The position numbers were made by a program, and so were the translations under genes. Under the pieces are notes generated by a model. That model saw nothing but the letters and a program-made list of their open reading frames with translations. It was not told the DNA's origin and did not search any database. From a virus (lineage: Duplodnaviria > Caudoviricetes): DNA of 64,000 nt. The stretch's first letter is position 1, and every line of letters starts with the position of its first letter. Positions 48,800-59,403 of the stretch are shown in pieces. Location: IMG/VR virus record IMGVR_UViG_2974670102_000001, positions 160,001 through 224,000 of that record. The stretch is one strand, 5' to 3'.

Positions 48800-48959
48800 T
48801 TTTTGGAACGCTGGCCCGGGCCCGGGCCACGAGGCCGACACGATCAAGAAGCTGCGCCAACTGGGCATCGACCCCCGGTTCTGGGAGAATGCGTCACTGA
48901 CGTTTGAGGGTGCGCTCGACAGGTTCTGGCGCAGTGCCGATGACTGGAGAGGTGTATGA
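48792..48959 (+). CDS. Small hypothetical protein
   Basis: AAGGT SD; coupled to the next gene. Confidence 0.5.
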   Translation: MSDFWNAGPGPGHEADTIKKLRQLGIDPRFWENASLTFEGALDRFWRSADDWRGV

Positions 48960-49345
48960 TCAAGACCCAGAGCCCGAGCCAATTGGGGATTCCGCCCACC
49001 GCCCTGTATCTGGACGAGAGTACCACACGCACGCTCCATGACGTGAAGTCGCATCCGCGTCCGTTTCAGGATGTGTGGGACGGGAACAAGCGGGCGGAAG
49101 TACGCGTCAACGACCGCGATTACGGGCAAGGGGACGCGCTGCTGATCCGCGAATACGATCCGGGGCCCCGACCGTGGGACCGGCATTCCGCTTTCTACAC
49201 GGGTCGCGAGATCGTGGCGATCATCACCCACGTGCAGCAGGGTTATGGACTGCCTCCAGACCTCGTGGTGCTTAGCATCGACGTGGTAGACCGTCAGGAA
49301 CGTCCTGTCCTTAGCGGGGTTAAGGAAGAACGCAAAATTTTTTGA
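48956..49345 (+). CDS. ASCH/PUA domain protein (DUF3850-like)
   Basis: H.VK..P..F..V..G.K.AEVR.NDRDY..GD.L..REY...YTGR. Confidence 0.85.
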   Translation: MIKTQSPSQLGIPPTALYLDESTTRTLHDVKSHPRPFQDVWDGNKRAEVRVNDRDYGQGDALLIREYDPGPRPWDRHSAFYTGREIVAIITHVQQGYGLPPDLVVLSIDVVDRQERPVLSGVKEERKIF

Positions 49346-49770: not shown

Positions 49771-51384
49771 TTACACCAGATATGGGGAATCCACGACCCG
49801 CACCGGCTTCTTCTTGCCCTTGATCGCAAGCATAGAATTCACGGTTCTGGATTCCCTGCGCTTTTCATCCGCCTGCTTTACCATCCCCGGGTTCTGTCGA
49901 CGTGCCTTAGCGATTTTCTGTGCACGCTCGTCGACTATCACGCGCGCCAACTTCCCCCGGGTCACCAGAACGCCTGTGCGCTTCTCGATCTCGCGCCCCA
50001 GCTTCTTCTGGCTTGTCCGGATTTCACCAGCCTTTGCTGCCTGCTTGAGAGAATCCAGTACCTGAGCCGCTAGTTCCTCCTTCGCCTTTTTCCTGTCTAC
50101 AGCAGCCTGTGTGCGGGCCGTGGCCTTGGCCCTGACCACCTTCTTCTTCACCTTTGGCTTGTGGAGTTCCTGTACCTCAGCCTCACTGAGTTCCTGCATG
50201 TCGGACTCAAGTTCGGGGGCTTTCCGATGCTGGTGACCTACGCCCAACAGTTTGTCCTGCTCGTGGCGTCGACGTGCCGAATCGCGTTGTTTTGCTGCCG
50301 TGCTGCCTGCCTTTTTCGGTCTCCCGCCCTTGTTGACCTCACGTTCGGGTAGCGGTTCTGTGGATAGTTGGGATTCCGATCCAGTTCCGTCCGCGTGAAC
50401 CACGTCAATCCAGTCTGCAAACGGGTCGATTCCCACGCCAATCGTGGTGGAGTTCTGGGATTGTACAGGATTCCTGTGCTTCTCTCCACCAGTCGTAACG
50501 CCCACGCCCACGCCCACGCCCACGCCCACGCCCACGCCCACGCCCACGCCCACGCCAGCAGTCCCAATATCACCAAACAAGTCACTGAGTTCCTTGTCGG
50601 ATTGTGTTGGTGTGCCCGTGCCCGTCTGGGCCCCGATGGGTGTGCTATAACTGGACACCGATTGCTTTGGGGTCGTGAGTTCCTGTGAATTAGCGTCGAT
50701 CACCCCGTTTCGGTTAGAGAGCGTGGATTCGAGCATCAGGACCCTCGATTCAGCTAGTTCTGCCCGCTGTTCGGCATCGAGACGGGCCTGATCCTGTGGA
50801 TCGATCTCTAGCCCCTGTTGGGTGGCCTGTAGTGCTCGTAGCGCATAGTTTTCTTCATTAAAAATTGGCGCTACGGGCCTCTTTTTAGGCTTTGTGCGTG
50901 GATACACAGGATCAGTAGATTGAGCGGGCACCGGTTTAATGAGGTGTTTTACGCCACCCGATTCGGACTCCGAAATATCGAGCATGAAGTCGTCATCGAG
51001 TTCACCAGATGCTTGGGAGTCCTCACGAACTTCGGGGCCCGGGCCCCACTCCCAATCGTCGTCCGCGTCCTCATCATCGTAGGATTCCTGAGCAACTGCG
51101 TAACCGCGATTGATGGCACCCGCACCCGCGATCTCGGAAATCGCGAGGTTGAGGTTCAGGGCGTGGAATTCGGCACCCGATTCACAGGGTTCGCGTAGGA
51201 CAGTGGGCTTCATCCCCATGTCGTGGAGACGGGCGACCACAGGATCGTGCATGAGACTCGACATCCGGATCGGCTGGTCCCCGTGCTGGACGAGCGCGAG
51301 AATCGGTTTGTTGGTGAAAGTGTAGCCCTGCACCGTGAACGAGCCGGGATGGGTGGGATCGAGTAAAATAATCAGATGTTGCAT
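49771..51384 (-). CDS. Largely disordered protein with acidic N-half, (GV)10 tract and basic HTH-like C-terminus
   Basis: 537 aa ORF opposite to its neighbours; KGGRPKK; SQKKLGREI..RTG..VTRG.L.RVI. Confidence 0.7.
   Translation of the reverse strand: MQHLIILLDPTHPGSFTVQGYTFTNKPILALVQHGDQPIRMSSLMHDPVVARLHDMGMKPTVLREPCESGAEFHALNLNLAISEIAGAGAINRGYAVAQESYDDEDADDDWEWGPGPEVREDSQASGELDDDFMLDISESESGGVKHLIKPVPAQSTDPVYPRTKPKKRPVAPIFNEENYALRALQATQQGLEIDPQDQARLDAEQRAELAESRVLMLESTLSNRNGVIDANSQELTTPKQSVSSYSTPIGAQTGTGTPTQSDKELSDLFGDIGTAGVGVGVGVGVGVGVGVGVGVTTGGEKHRNPVQSQNSTTIGVGIDPFADWIDVVHADGTGSESQLSTEPLPEREVNKGGRPKKAGSTAAKQRDSARRRHEQDKLLGVGHQHRKAPELESDMQELSEAEVQELHKPKVKKKVVRAKATARTQAAVDRKKAKEELAAQVLDSLKQAAKAGEIRTSQKKLGREIEKRTGVLVTRGKLARVIVDERAQKIAKARRQNPGMVKQADEKRRESRTVNSMLAIKGKKKPVRVVDSPYLV
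50498..50556. repeat. Perfect hexamer microsatellite (ACGCCC) x ~9.8
   Basis: Read directly; encodes the GV repeat on the minus strand. Confidence 0.97.
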
Positions 51385-54556: not shown

Positions 54557-54998
54557 ACCGTACTACCTGATCAGCGCGGACATCGCTGAGGTGCAGGTCC
54601 TGTCGATTCTGTCGAACGAGGTGCAAGTCGAGTACGACCGGCTCGTGTCCGAGGCCAACACCAAGTTCTACCGGGGCTGTACCACGGTCATCCGCTCGCA
54701 CATGGTCCATCACATGCAGAATCTGCTGGACCGGTTCTATCACTCGGACACGATTGCGGGCTACGTGATCACGTGTGACGACGACACGAATCCGGGCGAC
54801 GAGTTGCACGGGCTCAACATGCTGATCCATATTCCGCCCGGAGGCCAGCGCGGCGACGGTGTGGTGGAGCATCTGTTCCGTGGCCGTCGTTCGAATCCGG
54901 AGGCGGCTAAGGCGCTGGACAACGCAGTGGCCTACGCATCGACGATTCCGGCTCCGGAGCCGGTTTCGGATGCTGATCTTTACATGGAGGGTTTTTGA
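54549..54998 (+). CDS. Hypothetical protein with tail-sheath C-terminal-like motif
   Basis: IR......L......TIAGYVITCDDDTNP....G....I.I.P. Confidence 0.5.
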   Translation: MAKPYYLISADIAEVQVLSILSNEVQVEYDRLVSEANTKFYRGCTTVIRSHMVHHMQNLLDRFYHSDTIAGYVITCDDDTNPGDELHGLNMLIHIPPGGQRGDGVVEHLFRGRRSNPEAAKALDNAVAYASTIPAPEPVSDADLYMEGF

Positions 54999-55207
54999 TG
55001 AAAGACAAACGTTACGATGCGCGGCTCAAGGAGTACGTGGAAAGCCCGGCCCACGTCGAGGCTTTCCTAGACGAGTACGAGGCACTGTGCCAGAAATTCG
55101 GCCTGAGTCTCGGCCACGAGGATGCGCACGGTGGTTTCATCATCGAGGAATTTCACGAATACAACATGAAGTGGGTGCGCGAGGCGTCCATGCAGGTGGA
55201 GGAATAA
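54998..55207 (+). CDS. Small hypothetical protein
   Basis: GGAGG SD; C.KFGLSL.HED.HGGFIIE. Confidence 0.65.
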   Translation: MKDKRYDARLKEYVESPAHVEAFLDEYEALCQKFGLSLGHEDAHGGFIIEEFHEYNMKWVREASMQVEE

Positions 55208-55389
55208 TGGACCGAAGTGACGAGTATTACGAAGGCTACGATGCGTTCTGCGCCGGGCTCACTGACGCGGATAATCCGTACGAAGCTGGCACCGACAAGG
55301 GTATGGACTGGTTCGACGGCCATATGGATGCCGAGTGCGACCACATGGCCCCGGAACGTGAAGACGGCCCCCAGACGGAGGCACCGTGA
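55207..55389 (+). CDS. RMF/CrpP-fold-like microprotein (acidic)
   Basis: YYEGY.AF.AG...NPY......W.DG; TAATG coupling. Confidence 0.6.
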   Translation: MDRSDEYYEGYDAFCAGLTDADNPYEAGTDKGMDWFDGHMDAECDHMAPEREDGPQTEAP

Positions 55390-55595
55390 CCCTTATCGAA
55401 CTGGCGAACAAAGTGAACCAGATGCTGGCAGACGGCGCGGACCCCAATCTCGTGGTCGGCGGCCCTGATCCGTATGGTGACCTGCTGTGCGAGTTGCTGG
55501 ATATCGGACTCGCGCAGGGTGCCAATGCCGTACGCCGTGGCAAACAGCAGTACGTTGAATTGCTGGGAATCTGGTCGTTACCGGACCCGGACTAA
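55386..55595 (+). CDS. Small hypothetical protein
   Basis: GGAGG SD, GTG start. Confidence 0.6.
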   Translation: MTLIELANKVNQMLADGADPNLVVGGPDPYGDLLCELLDIGLAQGANAVRRGKQQYVELLGIWSLPDPD

Positions 55596-55605
55596 TGGAG
55601 GAAGG

Positions 55606-56451
55606 ATGTCGAAGAAGATGAAGAAGGACGTTATGGGTAACCAGATGAAAGCGTTCGAAGCGCAGGAAACGGGTCGCGAATTCATGCCCGAAACGTACAT
55701 CGTGGCGCGTCTCGACGGCCGTGCGTTCCACACGTTCACGCGTGGTCTGGAGCGCCCGTACTCGAAGCGGTTCTCGCGCTGCATGCTCACGACTGCGGCT
55801 GCTCTCGTCGAGGATTTCCACGCGGACCTCGCATACACCCAAAGCGACGAGATCACGCTGATGTGGGAACCGCGTGCTCAGGAAAACCTGCCGTTTGCGG
55901 GCCGCATCTTCAAATTCAATTCGCTGCTGGCAGCACGCGCATCCGTCGCGTTCCTGCGGGCGGTGGCGCAGGAGATTCCTGAGAAGGCGCACCTGAATCC
56001 GCTGTTCGACTGCCGCGCGTTCGCTACCCCGAACGAGGAAGTTGCGTTCTCCCAGTTCCTGTGGCGCGAGATCGATGCCACGCGCAACTCACTGATGATG
56101 CTGGCGCAGGCTCACTACTCCCACAAGGAGTTGCACGGCAAGGGCTCGGCGGCCCAGCACGATCTGCTGCACGCGCGTGGCATCAACTGGAACGACGAGC
56201 CCGCGTTCTTCAAGCGCGGGACCTACTTGCGCCGCTTGAACTACATGCGTACGCTCAGCGACGCGGAACTGGCACGTATTCCGGTGGCCAAGCGCCCTGA
56301 CGGTCCGGTGATCAGGAGCAACGTGTTCCCGCTGGCGGTGCCACCGGTCGCCAGTTTGGGCAGGTTCGATGCGATCTACGAATGTGGTGCTGATCGTACC
56401 AATCCGTGGTTCCCGGACGAGCGTCTGCGGGACTTGCCAGCCTATAACTAA
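55606..56451 (+). CDS. thg1: tRNA-His guanylyltransferase Thg1-like protein (3'-5' polymerase)
   Basis: RLDGRAFHTFT...RPY, YTQSDEI, FDCR, WR..DA.RNS, GINWND.P..F.RG. Confidence 0.93.
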   Translation: MSKKMKKDVMGNQMKAFEAQETGREFMPETYIVARLDGRAFHTFTRGLERPYSKRFSRCMLTTAAALVEDFHADLAYTQSDEITLMWEPRAQENLPFAGRIFKFNSLLAARASVAFLRAVAQEIPEKAHLNPLFDCRAFATPNEEVAFSQFLWREIDATRNSLMMLAQAHYSHKELHGKGSAAQHDLLHARGINWNDEPAFFKRGTYLRRLNYMRTLSDAELARIPVAKRPDGPVIRSNVFPLAVPPVASLGRFDAIYECGADRTNPWFPDERLRDLPAYN

Positions 56452-56462
56452 TCGTGTAAAGT
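56434..56462 (+). promoter_or_regulatory. Sigma70-type promoter TTGCCA-17-TAAAGT
   Basis: Consensus spacing, upstream of 56486. Confidence 0.55.
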
Positions 56463-56485
56463 TTGGCCTCTTTTACGGAGGTTGA

Positions 56486-56629
56486 ATGAAAAGCGATGAG
56501 TTTTACGCCGGTCGGCTTGCAGGTCTGTGTCACCGCCTGCGAGTCAACCCGCATCAAACGAAGAGCAAACGCGCTGACTGGTTCGCCGGGTACGACGAGG
56601 CAAAGCGCATTCTCAAGGAGAAGCAATGA
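56486..56629 (+). CDS. Ribosome modulation factor (RMF)-like microprotein, 47 aa, not in the ORF track
   Basis: GGAGGT SD; MKSDEFYAGRLAGLCHRLRVNPHQTKSKRADWFAGYDEAKRILKEKQ; ATGA overlap with the next gene. Confidence 0.7.
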   Translation: MKSDEFYAGRLAGLCHRLRVNPHQTKSKRADWFAGYDEAKRILKEKQ

Positions 56630-56892
56630 AGGTTCGCAAGATCGCGAAGCGGCCACCGACGTACCTGCGTGTGGACACCGTGAACGTACCGACCGGATTC
56701 TACGGTGTGACGCAGCGGAAAACGAAGAACGGCGTAGACATCCACCTGATCACGGAGCGGAAGGAGTTCATCGCCCTGTACGGTCAGCCGGATTTCGACA
56801 CCACGGTCACGATCACGGATCGTGGAATCGCGTTGTTGGCCAGCCTCGATTTCCCGAGAGTGGTGCCTTATGCACAGCGGGTGCGCACGTGA
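56626..56892 (+). CDS. Hypothetical protein
   Basis: AAGGAG SD. Confidence 0.6.
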   Translation: MKVRKIAKRPPTYLRVDTVNVPTGFYGVTQRKTKNGVDIHLITERKEFIALYGQPDFDTTVTITDRGIALLASLDFPRVVPYAQRVRT

Positions 56893-57098
56893 AGCACAAA
56901 ATCCGCCATTTTGTGGGGACCGTGGAGCAGCCTCCGATTGAGGTGGACACCTCGATCCTCAACGATTCCACCTACCAATGGGCCAAGACACTGGTGCGCT
57001 GGTACGACGAGATCGGTCACTGGAACAACGATTCTGAAAACTCCAGCCTCTTCAACCTGCTGAAGCAGGAGATCAAGGAATACGAGGTTCGGCAATGA
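56889..57098 (+). CDS. Hypothetical protein
   Basis: GTGA overlap. Confidence 0.55.
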   Translation: MKHKIRHFVGTVEQPPIEVDTSILNDSTYQWAKTLVRWYDEIGHWNNDSENSSLFNLLKQEIKEYEVRQ

Positions 57099-57307
57099 AC
57101 AGATACAACAGTTTCCCCGAAATCCACCACCACGACGCGGCGGACCTAGCACGCGATCTCGTGAAGTGGATCGAGGCGTCGGACCCAGAATTGGGCTCTC
57201 CCCTTCTGGACTTCTGCTATCGTCTGGAAGACGAGATTACCGCATTCCAAGACCGTATCATCGTGGCGGACCGCGAAGCGTATTATCAGCATTATACGCC
57301 GAAGTAG
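57095..57307 (+). CDS. Hypothetical protein
   Basis: GAGGT SD, ATGA overlap. Confidence 0.6.
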   Translation: MNRYNSFPEIHHHDAADLARDLVKWIEASDPELGSPLLDFCYRLEDEITAFQDRIIVADREAYYQHYTPK

Positions 57308-57345
57308 TTGACAAGTCCCGTTCAGTTGAATAAACTGGCGGGACT
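57308..57345 (+). promoter_or_regulatory. Sigma70-type promoter TTGACA-17-TAAACT within an inverted repeat
   Basis: AAGTCCCG..CAGTT / AACTG.CGGGACTT arms. Confidence 0.75.
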
Positions 57346-57366: not shown

Positions 57367-57996
57367 ATGCAGACCAAACAGATCAACAAACTGGAAGTCC
57401 TGAAGAACGTCATCAAGTGCGACTCGAACGCCGATGGTTGGGTTGATGCATACAAGATGGCGCATGCACTGGAACTCTACAGCTTCCACGGCGGCCCGGA
57501 CGACGCGCAGACCCGTCTCCGGGCCTATGCGGTCACCGAATGGCTCTGTACGGACACCCACGTGGGCCTCAGCGCCATCTACTTCGACGGCAAGCTCGTT
57601 GGCTGCATCGAACAGTGGTCGCGTAAGGGTGACGTGAACTACTCGTGGGTGAGTGCCGAGGCCGCGATGGCGGTCCGCAACTTTCTGGCCGAGGGCATGG
57701 AATTCGAGTTCCCGACCATCGGAGCCGATGACACTGTGGATTCGCGCTATCGCGTGAACTACCGTGATCAGATTCTGTGCGTCAACGGTTGGTACGCCGG
57801 TAAACCGGTCACCTACGTCAAGGAGCCGCGCGCTCGGGTAGACGGGAAGTATCTGGCGTTCGACGCCGATTACGACTGCGTTATCCTGATCGCGCACGAG
57901 GACGGCACCACCGAACGGATTCCGGTGTCCGAGTTCTACATGGACCTGCATGTCCCGAAGCACGTGGTCGACGATCTGTTGACAGACGCCGAATAA
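57367..57996 (+). CDS. Hypothetical protein
   Basis: 209 aa ORF after promoter; W.CTDT.VG...IYFDG..V motif. Confidence 0.7.
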   Translation: MQTKQINKLEVLKNVIKCDSNADGWVDAYKMAHALELYSFHGGPDDAQTRLRAYAVTEWLCTDTHVGLSAIYFDGKLVGCIEQWSRKGDVNYSWVSAEAAMAVRNFLAEGMEFEFPTIGADDTVDSRYRVNYRDQILCVNGWYAGKPVTYVKEPRARVDGKYLAFDADYDCVILIAHEDGTTERIPVSEFYMDLHVPKHVVDDLLTDAE

Positions 57997-58033
57997 GCGC
58001 GTACGATACGCCCATCTGATCACGGGAGGCCCT

Positions 58034-59237: not shown

Positions 59238-59373
59238 GATTGACGACCCGAAGATCGAGATCGTACGCCAGTGCATCGAGCGTGCGGTCGTCGAGGCCGC
59301 TAATGGCGGTGACCTGTGGCTCACGACTTTCTTGGCCGCCGAGAAAATCGTGGACATGGTAAAGAGTAGTTGA
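59206..59373 (+). CDS. Small hypothetical protein
   Basis: Fills the gap; start uncertain. Confidence 0.45.
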   Translation: MKNSASSSGTKIDDPKIEIVRQCIERAVVEAANGGDLWLTTFLAAEKIVDMVKSS

Positions 59374-59403
59374 CGTAACGTCAGGGCCACTATATAGTGG
59401 CCC
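59370..59403 (+). promoter_or_regulatory. Sigma70-type promoter TTGACG-17-TATAGT with a perfect 20-bp palindrome over the -10 box
   Basis: GGGCCACTATATAGTGGCCC at 59384-59403. Confidence 0.8.

Follow-up and report, generated by a model that had tools for sequence, protein, structure and literature searches.

Does a phage that carries two microproteins resembling ribosome modulation factor (RMF), one on either side of a tRNA-repair gene, use them to send host ribosomes into hibernation? The question is raised by a 64,000-nucleotide stretch of DNA (the window), i.e., bases 160001-224000 of the 262,653-bp virus record IMGVR_UViG_2974670102_000001 (here G000), which is complete according to CheckV. 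Within the window, a Thg1-like gene (55606..56451, plus strand) is flanked by a gene for an acidic protein of 60 amino acids (aa; net charge −15; 55207..55389, plus strand) and a gene for a basic protein of 47 aa (net charge +5; 56486..56629, plus strand). The original prediction regarded the basic protein as an RMF mimic and the acidic one as its antagonist or decoy, both paired with tRNA repair. Our analysis indicates that both proteins are very probably members of an RMF-fold family and not RMF orthologues, and that a role in ribosome hibernation is unlikely. The reading that we favour as a whole, namely diverged RMF-fold paralogues that are tied to RNA repair within a theme of host takeover or counter-defence, is a tentative one that falls somewhat short of an even chance. 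The nearest named relative of G000 is the Burkholderia phage BcepSaruman (263,735 bp). Burkholderia is a betaproteobacterium, and this kinship points to betaproteobacteria as the probable host class.

Both microprotein genes were found where they had been predicted, each with a GGAGG Shine-Dalgarno sequence. They belong to a run of small, closely packed genes on the plus strand around thg1 (54995-57307), whose junctions are mostly TAATG, GTGA or ATGA overlaps. The 60-aa open reading frame (ORF) starts in a TAATG overlap with the upstream stop codon; GGAGG-type ribosome-binding sites occur at several genes of the run, thg1 among them, and every gene of the run shows the codon pattern of its neighbours, with high, low, and high GC content at the first, second, and third positions, respectively. 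Due to the tight packing, the Shine-Dalgarno sequences, and the local codon-position pattern, we consider the 60-aa and 47-aa ORFs credible genes. The 47-aa ORF had been called unannotated, which fails for the public record, as the exact sequences of both microproteins are already contained in NCBI nr. The gene between them is intact, as predicted, and its product would be a 3'-5' nucleotidyltransferase for tRNA 5'-end repair: it matches PF04446 with 99.9 bits (cut-off 29.2) over profile positions 2-130 of 130 and phrog_4717 with an E-value of 3.9e-67. D37, D81, and E82, which we take to be the catalytic metal-binding carboxylates, lie in columns that are invariant among 48 homologues. The flanking of thg1 by the two copies holds as well, with a further 69-aa ORF (55386-55595, plus strand) placed between the acidic copy and thg1.

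The resemblance to RMF was confirmed for both ORFs by several lines of evidence. The Pfam RMF family PF04957 was matched with 24.4 bits by the 60-aa ORF (E = 3.1e-5) and with 21.0 bits by the 47-aa ORF (E = 3.6e-4), both below the gathering score of 27.9 bits. These matches are independent evidence for RMF homology; the scores of our local RMF-like hidden Markov model are circular for the two ORFs, because the hits used for training include the 60-aa ORF itself and a sequence 98% identical to the 47-aa ORF. The search against RMF and CrpP families that had been proposed as a check gave an RMF match below the cut-offs as well. The NCBIfam RMF model NF011162 (equivalog cut-off 40 bits) scored 19.2 bits with the 47-aa ORF, and the Rmf/CrpP model NF041886 (cut-off 28 bits) scored 12.2 bits (E = 0.1); the 60-aa ORF matched neither. 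Among PDB sequences, the 47-aa ORF matched E. coli RMF chains alone, its residues 9-40 lying opposite RMF residues 16-48. In this alignment, the loop PHQTKSKRADW lies opposite PYQTLNQRSQW, which pairs R29 with R37 of RMF. Both ORFs carry the signature G..A...G....(C/N)P(Y/H)......W..G(W/Y)..A, in which G, P, W, and G are invariant and the two alanines nearly invariant among 101 aligned sequences that include both ORFs. PHROGs and PADLOC yielded no match for either microprotein, and tblastn with both against 50,697 GenBank phages returned nothing at E ≤ 0.01.

The modelled structure of the 47-aa protein points in the same direction. An AlphaFold2 model based on a multiple sequence alignment (predicted local distance difference test, pLDDT, 92.9; predicted template modelling score, pTM, 0.74) consists of a helix (residues 4-15), a loop (16-25), and a second helix (26-46). 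RMF structures occupied ranks 1-4 when this model was compared to 350,542 PDB chains with Foldseek (9IOT, 6H4N, 2JRM, and 4V8G; TM scores of 0.49-0.71 by query length), although the E-values of these matches are not significant at a length of 47 aa. VIA, an aligner independent of Foldseek, placed the RMF chain 4V8G_AV first among 48,161 chains (Z = 6.4, root-mean-square deviation 2.1 Å over all 47 residues). The AlphaFold comparison suggested along with the original prediction thus spoke for RMF. A single-sequence AlphaFold2 model of the same protein (pLDDT 82, a plain helical hairpin) had no Foldseek match and was replaced by the alignment-based one. For the 60-aa ORF, the ESM Atlas model shows a TM score of 0.73 to an RMF-domain cluster, and the nearest Atlas clusters, used as a lead only, are 80-92% viral. 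As far as computation allows, it can be regarded as established that both ORFs are homologous to the RMF domain and that the 47-aa copy, as modelled, has the RMF fold.

The residues by which RMF holds on to the ribosome give a different picture. According to Beckert et al. (bioRxiv 10.1101/382572), the conserved RMF residues R3, K5, R8, R11, and R15 form hydrogen bonds with the 16S rRNA backbone, the N-terminal extension intertwines with S7, and R37 contacts S1. G9 of the 47-aa ORF aligns to G16 of RMF, which leaves eight residues ahead, and the first residue of the model is paired with residue 8 of RMF. This places A8, D4, and M1 opposite R15, R11, and R8, and leaves R3 and K5 without counterpart. 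For the 60-aa ORF, extrapolation from the glycine anchor puts E9, D5, and D2 at the positions of R15, R11, and R8. With the RMF of Gammaproteobacteria (E. coli 6H4N, 9IOT, and 4V8G; Vibrio 2JRM; PF04957), the phage proteins share the two helices, the loop of about ten residues, and the signature, and the 47-aa protein alone also shares the Q-T...R..W loop and the net positive charge. They differ in their shorter N-terminus, which lacks all five of these basic residues, in scores under the Pfam and NCBIfam cut-offs, in the opposite charge of the 60-aa paralogue, and in being encoded by a phage whose probable host class is reported without RMF, as the literature describes RMF and short HPF solely in gammaproteobacteria. 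The Rmf/CrpP family has the small fold class and the motif in common with them; however, the 47-aa match lies far under its cut-off. PA3049/BatR of P. aeruginosa provides a precedent for reuse of the fold: the protein is reported as about 49% similar to E. coli RMF and shares its fold, is reported not to act in ribosome hibernation or preservation, and was studied for its protein–protein interaction with SrkA (PMC13411936). Unlike the phage proteins, BatR is chromosomal, a close RMF homologue, and equipped with an extra C-terminal helix; it is also basic, and the precedent does not extend to its partners. Because the rRNA-gripping residues are absent and both microproteins belong to a large and mostly acidic phage family, a role of either in ribosome hibernation appears unlikely from their sequences.

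This family became apparent when a profile of the phage's three copies was searched against 1.84 billion representative proteins. The third copy, detected by a six-frame search of the whole phage, is a C-terminally extended paralogue of about 98 aa, which lies outside the window (G000:82146-82448, minus strand, identical to L002:1321-1617, minus strand) between genes for RtcB (G000:75678-76811, minus strand) and an Rnl2-type RNA ligase (G000:87448-87993, minus strand). A fourth, weak RMF-like match is located at G000:250134-250355 (minus strand, E = 3.8e-4). The profile search yielded 314 protein clusters at E ≤ 0.001, most of them with lengths of 45-60 aa and the core Y.EGY.A...G....NPY..G......W..GW..A, and Pfam RMF was matched at E ≤ 0.01 by 97 of 101 aligned members. 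Among 102 short representatives, 91 are net acidic and four net positive. The acidic form is thus the usual one and no special antagonist. The 60-aa ORF fits the family profile throughout (45-80 aa, RMF core, net acidic charge, small same-strand gene array); the acidic members share with it the more specific motif Y.EGY.A...G....DNPY..G......W..GW.DA and an acidic tail. The 47-aa ORF has the core but not the charge and is one of the few basic members, and the clustering around thg1 was seen only in the lineage of this phage. Concatenated forms of the microprotein exist too, since four proteins of 359-1317 aa (P0130, P0131, P0133, and P0147) consist of 4-6 RMF-domain repeats in tandem as their sole Pfam domains; such multi-repeat members exceed the Pfam RMF cut-off (35-73 bits). 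Among the contigs examined, the contexts of L011, L012, L100, and L101 look phage-like. Two further members, P0134 and P0157, look like relatives of the third paralogue and have similar tails.

Within its own lineage, the RMF-like genes of this phage remain linked to thg1. BcepSaruman retains the 69-aa ORF (96% identity to gp331), Thg1 (69-73%), the 47-aa ORF (98%), and an 88-aa ORF (93% identity to gp334) that is ATGA-coupled to the 47-aa ORF in the window (56626..56892, plus strand); the presumed orthologue of the acidic 60-aa ORF is 68% identical. Synteny in BcepSaruman was derived from protein cluster membership and gp numbering, and the labels gp331 and gp334 on the outer two genes are consistent with four consecutive genes. 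Conservation across 55207-56892 is mosaic, with Thg1 and the acidic ORF far more diverged than the microproteins interleaved with them (93-98%). Such a pattern inside 1.7 kb suggests recombination or differing selective pressure.

A more distant relative is represented by the Logan contig L012, which corresponds to a 51.8-kb NCBI contig (L102; GCA_029923825.1, JARDKD010000020.1). Identities to G000 amount to 55% for Thg1, 47% for RlaP, and 52% for a DEAD helicase. The gene order in this relative is Rnl1, RlaP, a 159-aa ORF with a weak RMF-like match, two RMF-like ORFs, an 86-aa ORF, Thg1, and six RMF-like ORFs, so that nine or ten RMF-like ORFs surround thg1 (L102:8054-11054, equal to L012:2873-5873). 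All of them have charges between −4 and −27, except that the ORF immediately following thg1 is positive (+2 or +3 with the alternative starts). The 60-aa ORF is matched best in this array by an acidic 76-aa ORF (55.5 bits). L012 is collinear with G000 at 230.6-235.7 kb save for the thg1 block, which in G000 is found at 215.0-216.6 kb. The different positions of the block in the two genomes are consistent with its movement as a unit. In G000, Rnl1 is found at 228.9 kb and RlaP at 230.6 kb, and none of the strong RMF-like ORFs detected in G000 and L102 is more than about 6 kb away from an RNA-repair gene. L102-type sequence resembling that of jumbo phages occurs in several NCBI assemblies (L104-L107), and the GC content of L012 is about 55%. 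One source labels its RMF-like ORF as 'ribosome modulation factor [Enterococcus faecium]'; the sequence probably stems from contamination or from a phage that was binned wrongly, and the name given to the product is likely to mislead.

The gap between thg1 and the RMF-like ORF that follows it measures 34 bp in the window and about 30-60 bp in the others, and contains a promoter-like site. The sigma70 promoter that had been proposed for the 47-aa ORF is no more than a consensus match of 9/12 (TTGCCA-17-TAAAGT, 56434..56462, plus strand), and the five such sites in the region do not exceed the number in shuffled sequences (3.4 ± 1.7). A better site, TTGACG-16-TATGAT, is present in the same gap of L012 (L012:4797-4824; 10/12, extended TG). 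Its −10 box is centred in a perfect 13-bp inverted repeat (AAAAGCCAGAACC ... GGTTCTGGCTTTT); at the window site, no comparable inverted repeat was seen by eye.

In the reading that we favour, the 60-aa and 47-aa ORFs are very probably diverged paralogues within the large, mostly acidic RMF-fold family (helix, 10-residue NP-containing loop, helix), which have ancestry and fold in common with bacterial RMF without being its orthologues and most likely do not drive ribosome hibernation. The RMF fold would serve as a small binding scaffold that phages diversify via tandem duplication. In this phage, BcepSaruman, and L012/L102, the RMF-like genes appear to be tied physically to thg1 within an RNA-repair gene set, with a weakly to clearly basic copy held directly 3' of thg1 behind the promoter-like site and a variable number of acidic copies nearby. 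The microproteins could then be early host-takeover or counter-defence factors in a conflict over host RNA and translation. Acidic copies might act as decoys for basic nucleic-acid-binding host proteins, e.g., RNA-targeting nucleases whose damage would be mended by Thg1 and ligases, and the basic copy might bind RNA or an acidic protein surface. The assignment of decoys and binders is weak. A more specific version, in which the basic protein paired with Thg1 targets tRNA or the 3' end of 16S rRNA and either protects it or offers it for repair, and the expanding acidic array neutralises RNA-targeting defence nucleases, seems to us improbable as it stands.

Several observations weigh against this reading. 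The link to thg1 is lineage-specific, and the RNA-conflict theme, built on synteny inside this lineage, amounts in effect to one or two independent evolutionary events; the connection with RNA repair is therefore suggestive and not proof. The megaphage LR756511 has a weak RMF-like ORF at a distance of about 400 kb from thg1. Two IMG/VR contigs (L100 and L101) carry relatives of the acidic ORF with 73% and 47% identity and lack thg1 within 10 kb; the larger ORFs checked beside these relatives gave no match to an RNA-repair family. For the third paralogue, which lies within about 5 kb of RtcB and Rnl2, we estimate that such a placement would be expected by chance with a probability of roughly 20%. 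The PHROG matches of the relatives are weak and lead to families of unknown function (phrog_10492 and phrog_1757). We found neither a described function for the phage RMF-fold microprotein family nor an experiment on any of its members.

The strongest of the rival explanations is that no functional link exists at all. The microproteins would then be generic early accessory genes, and their adjacency to thg1 an accident of tandem duplication that was kept by shared descent. We consider this explanation unlikely, though the distribution among phages speaks for it. No RMF-like ORF was found near thg1 in the five closest GenBank Thg1 phages (FLC9, RsoM2USA, two uncultured megaphages, and Variovorax V45v66), in six metagenome loci with Thg1 proteins of 55-60% identity (a seventh locus with identical called genes was left out of the scan), or in 80 IMG/VR thg1 loci with 8-kb flanks (1.19 Mb). 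Altogether, 91 other thg1 loci, i.e., 11 from GenBank phages and metagenomes and 80 from IMG/VR, are without such an ORF. The pairing with thg1 put forward in the original prediction is thus retained for the block that travels together inside this phage lineage and does not extend to these other loci. The contigs L100 and L101, which hold the acidic type without thg1, are likewise expected under this explanation, and the promoter-like site that separates thg1 from the following RMF-like ORF in either phage suggests a boundary between transcription units. However, the composition of the block was kept despite its change of position and despite Thg1 proteins that are only 55% identical, a weakly basic copy remains directly 3' of thg1, and the strong RMF-like ORFs of G000 and L102 all keep close to an RNA-repair gene. 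The metagenome loci without RMF-like ORFs carry NMNAT/NUDIX, NAD kinase, NAMPT, Thg1, DUF4419, and RlaP. Such RNA-repair and NAD-salvage clusters resemble the lineage studied here in the identity of their Thg1 (55-60%) and in RlaP, which is also close by in L012/L102, and differ from it in the missing RMF-like ORFs. As a separate observation, L010 and L015-L019 represent another jumbo-phage clade with conserved NMNAT/NUDIX, NAD kinase, NAMPT, Thg1, DUF4419, RlaP, and DUF8224, in which NAD salvage is joined to RNA repair.

Alternatively, the 47-aa basic protein could be an accessory factor of Thg1, binding either the enzyme or its tRNA substrate and thereby modulating 5'-end repair. Its adjacency to thg1 was kept in three genomes down to 55% Thg1 identity, and among the ORFs of L102 it is matched best by the one in the equivalent place directly after thg1 (32 bits, compared to 23.5 bits for its own paralogue), both being positively charged where the family is otherwise acidic. 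The conservation of 98% to BcepSaruman, against 69-73% for Thg1, also fits an accessory factor. On the other hand, Thg1 does not generally need an RMF-like partner, because the 91 other phage thg1 loci lack one, and the promoter-like site separates the two genes; in sum, we judge an accessory role to be quite improbable. The least probable explanation is genuine RMF mimicry, in which the 47-aa protein would bind the 30S subunit close to the anti-Shine-Dalgarno region and trigger hibernation, with the acidic copy as antagonist or decoy: the RMF fold, the loop motif P-[YH]-Q-T-x3-R-x2-W at RMF-like spacing, R29 at the position of the S1-contacting R37, and the charge of the 47-aa protein would fit, yet the five rRNA-contacting residues of helix 1 and the N-terminal extension are either missing or exchanged for A, D, and M, all scores stay under the curated cut-offs, the nearest named phage infects a genus outside the gammaproteobacteria, the RMF-similar BatR is reported without a hibernation role, and the acidic form is simply the family norm.

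If the more specific version, with a basic copy acting on tRNA or 16S rRNA and an acidic array directed at nucleases, were correct, such a translation and RNA-conflict module would provide the first function for the phage RMF-fold microprotein family. This family comprises hundreds of clusters, some of which are automatically annotated as 'ribosome modulation factor', a label that is unsupported by our data. The lineage offers a tractable entry point, as BcepSaruman is cultured, the tRNA-repair enzyme of this phage comes with one basic and one acidic copy, and an expanded array is available in a relative. A functional link to RNA repair would reveal a new way in which phages control host translation or RNA-targeting defence. 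Should the link not be functional, the locus still cautions against inferring ribosome hibernation from an RMF domain.

Regarding the other genes of the run, a 70-aa ORF (54995..55207, plus strand) at its start is a conserved member of the thg1 block that shares 52% identity over 60 aa with the 86-aa ORF immediately preceding thg1 in L012/L102, and had no match in Pfam, NCBIfam, PHROG, or PADLOC. The 69-aa ORF that follows the acidic copy is GTGA-coupled to it; it matched no family in Pfam or PHROG, and no counterpart was found in L012. For the 88-aa ORF downstream of the basic copy, Pfam, PHROG, and PADLOC gave no family match. The run continues with ORFs of 69 aa (56889-57098, plus strand) and 70 aa (57095-57307, plus strand). 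A 200-aa ORF in another frame (56496-57098) was rejected as a real gene; its GC content at third codon positions is 0.59, and it overlaps three coupled ORFs with a better codon-position pattern.

An ASCH gene at 48956 had been brought into the same theme. The gene is real (48956-49345, plus strand; DUF3850 62.6 bits, ASCH 20.7 bits), but it is situated 6 kb away beyond opposite-strand genes without any sign of a connection, and was rejected as a member of the module. On the minus strand, a 537-aa ORF (49771-51384) without a Pfam match contains a run of about ten Gly-Val repeats. Downstream of the thg1 block, three sigma70-like sites with 10/12 consensus matches lie in or at intergenic gaps (57308-57336, 57979-58007, and 59370-59398), which is consistent with early transcription units read by the host RNA polymerase.

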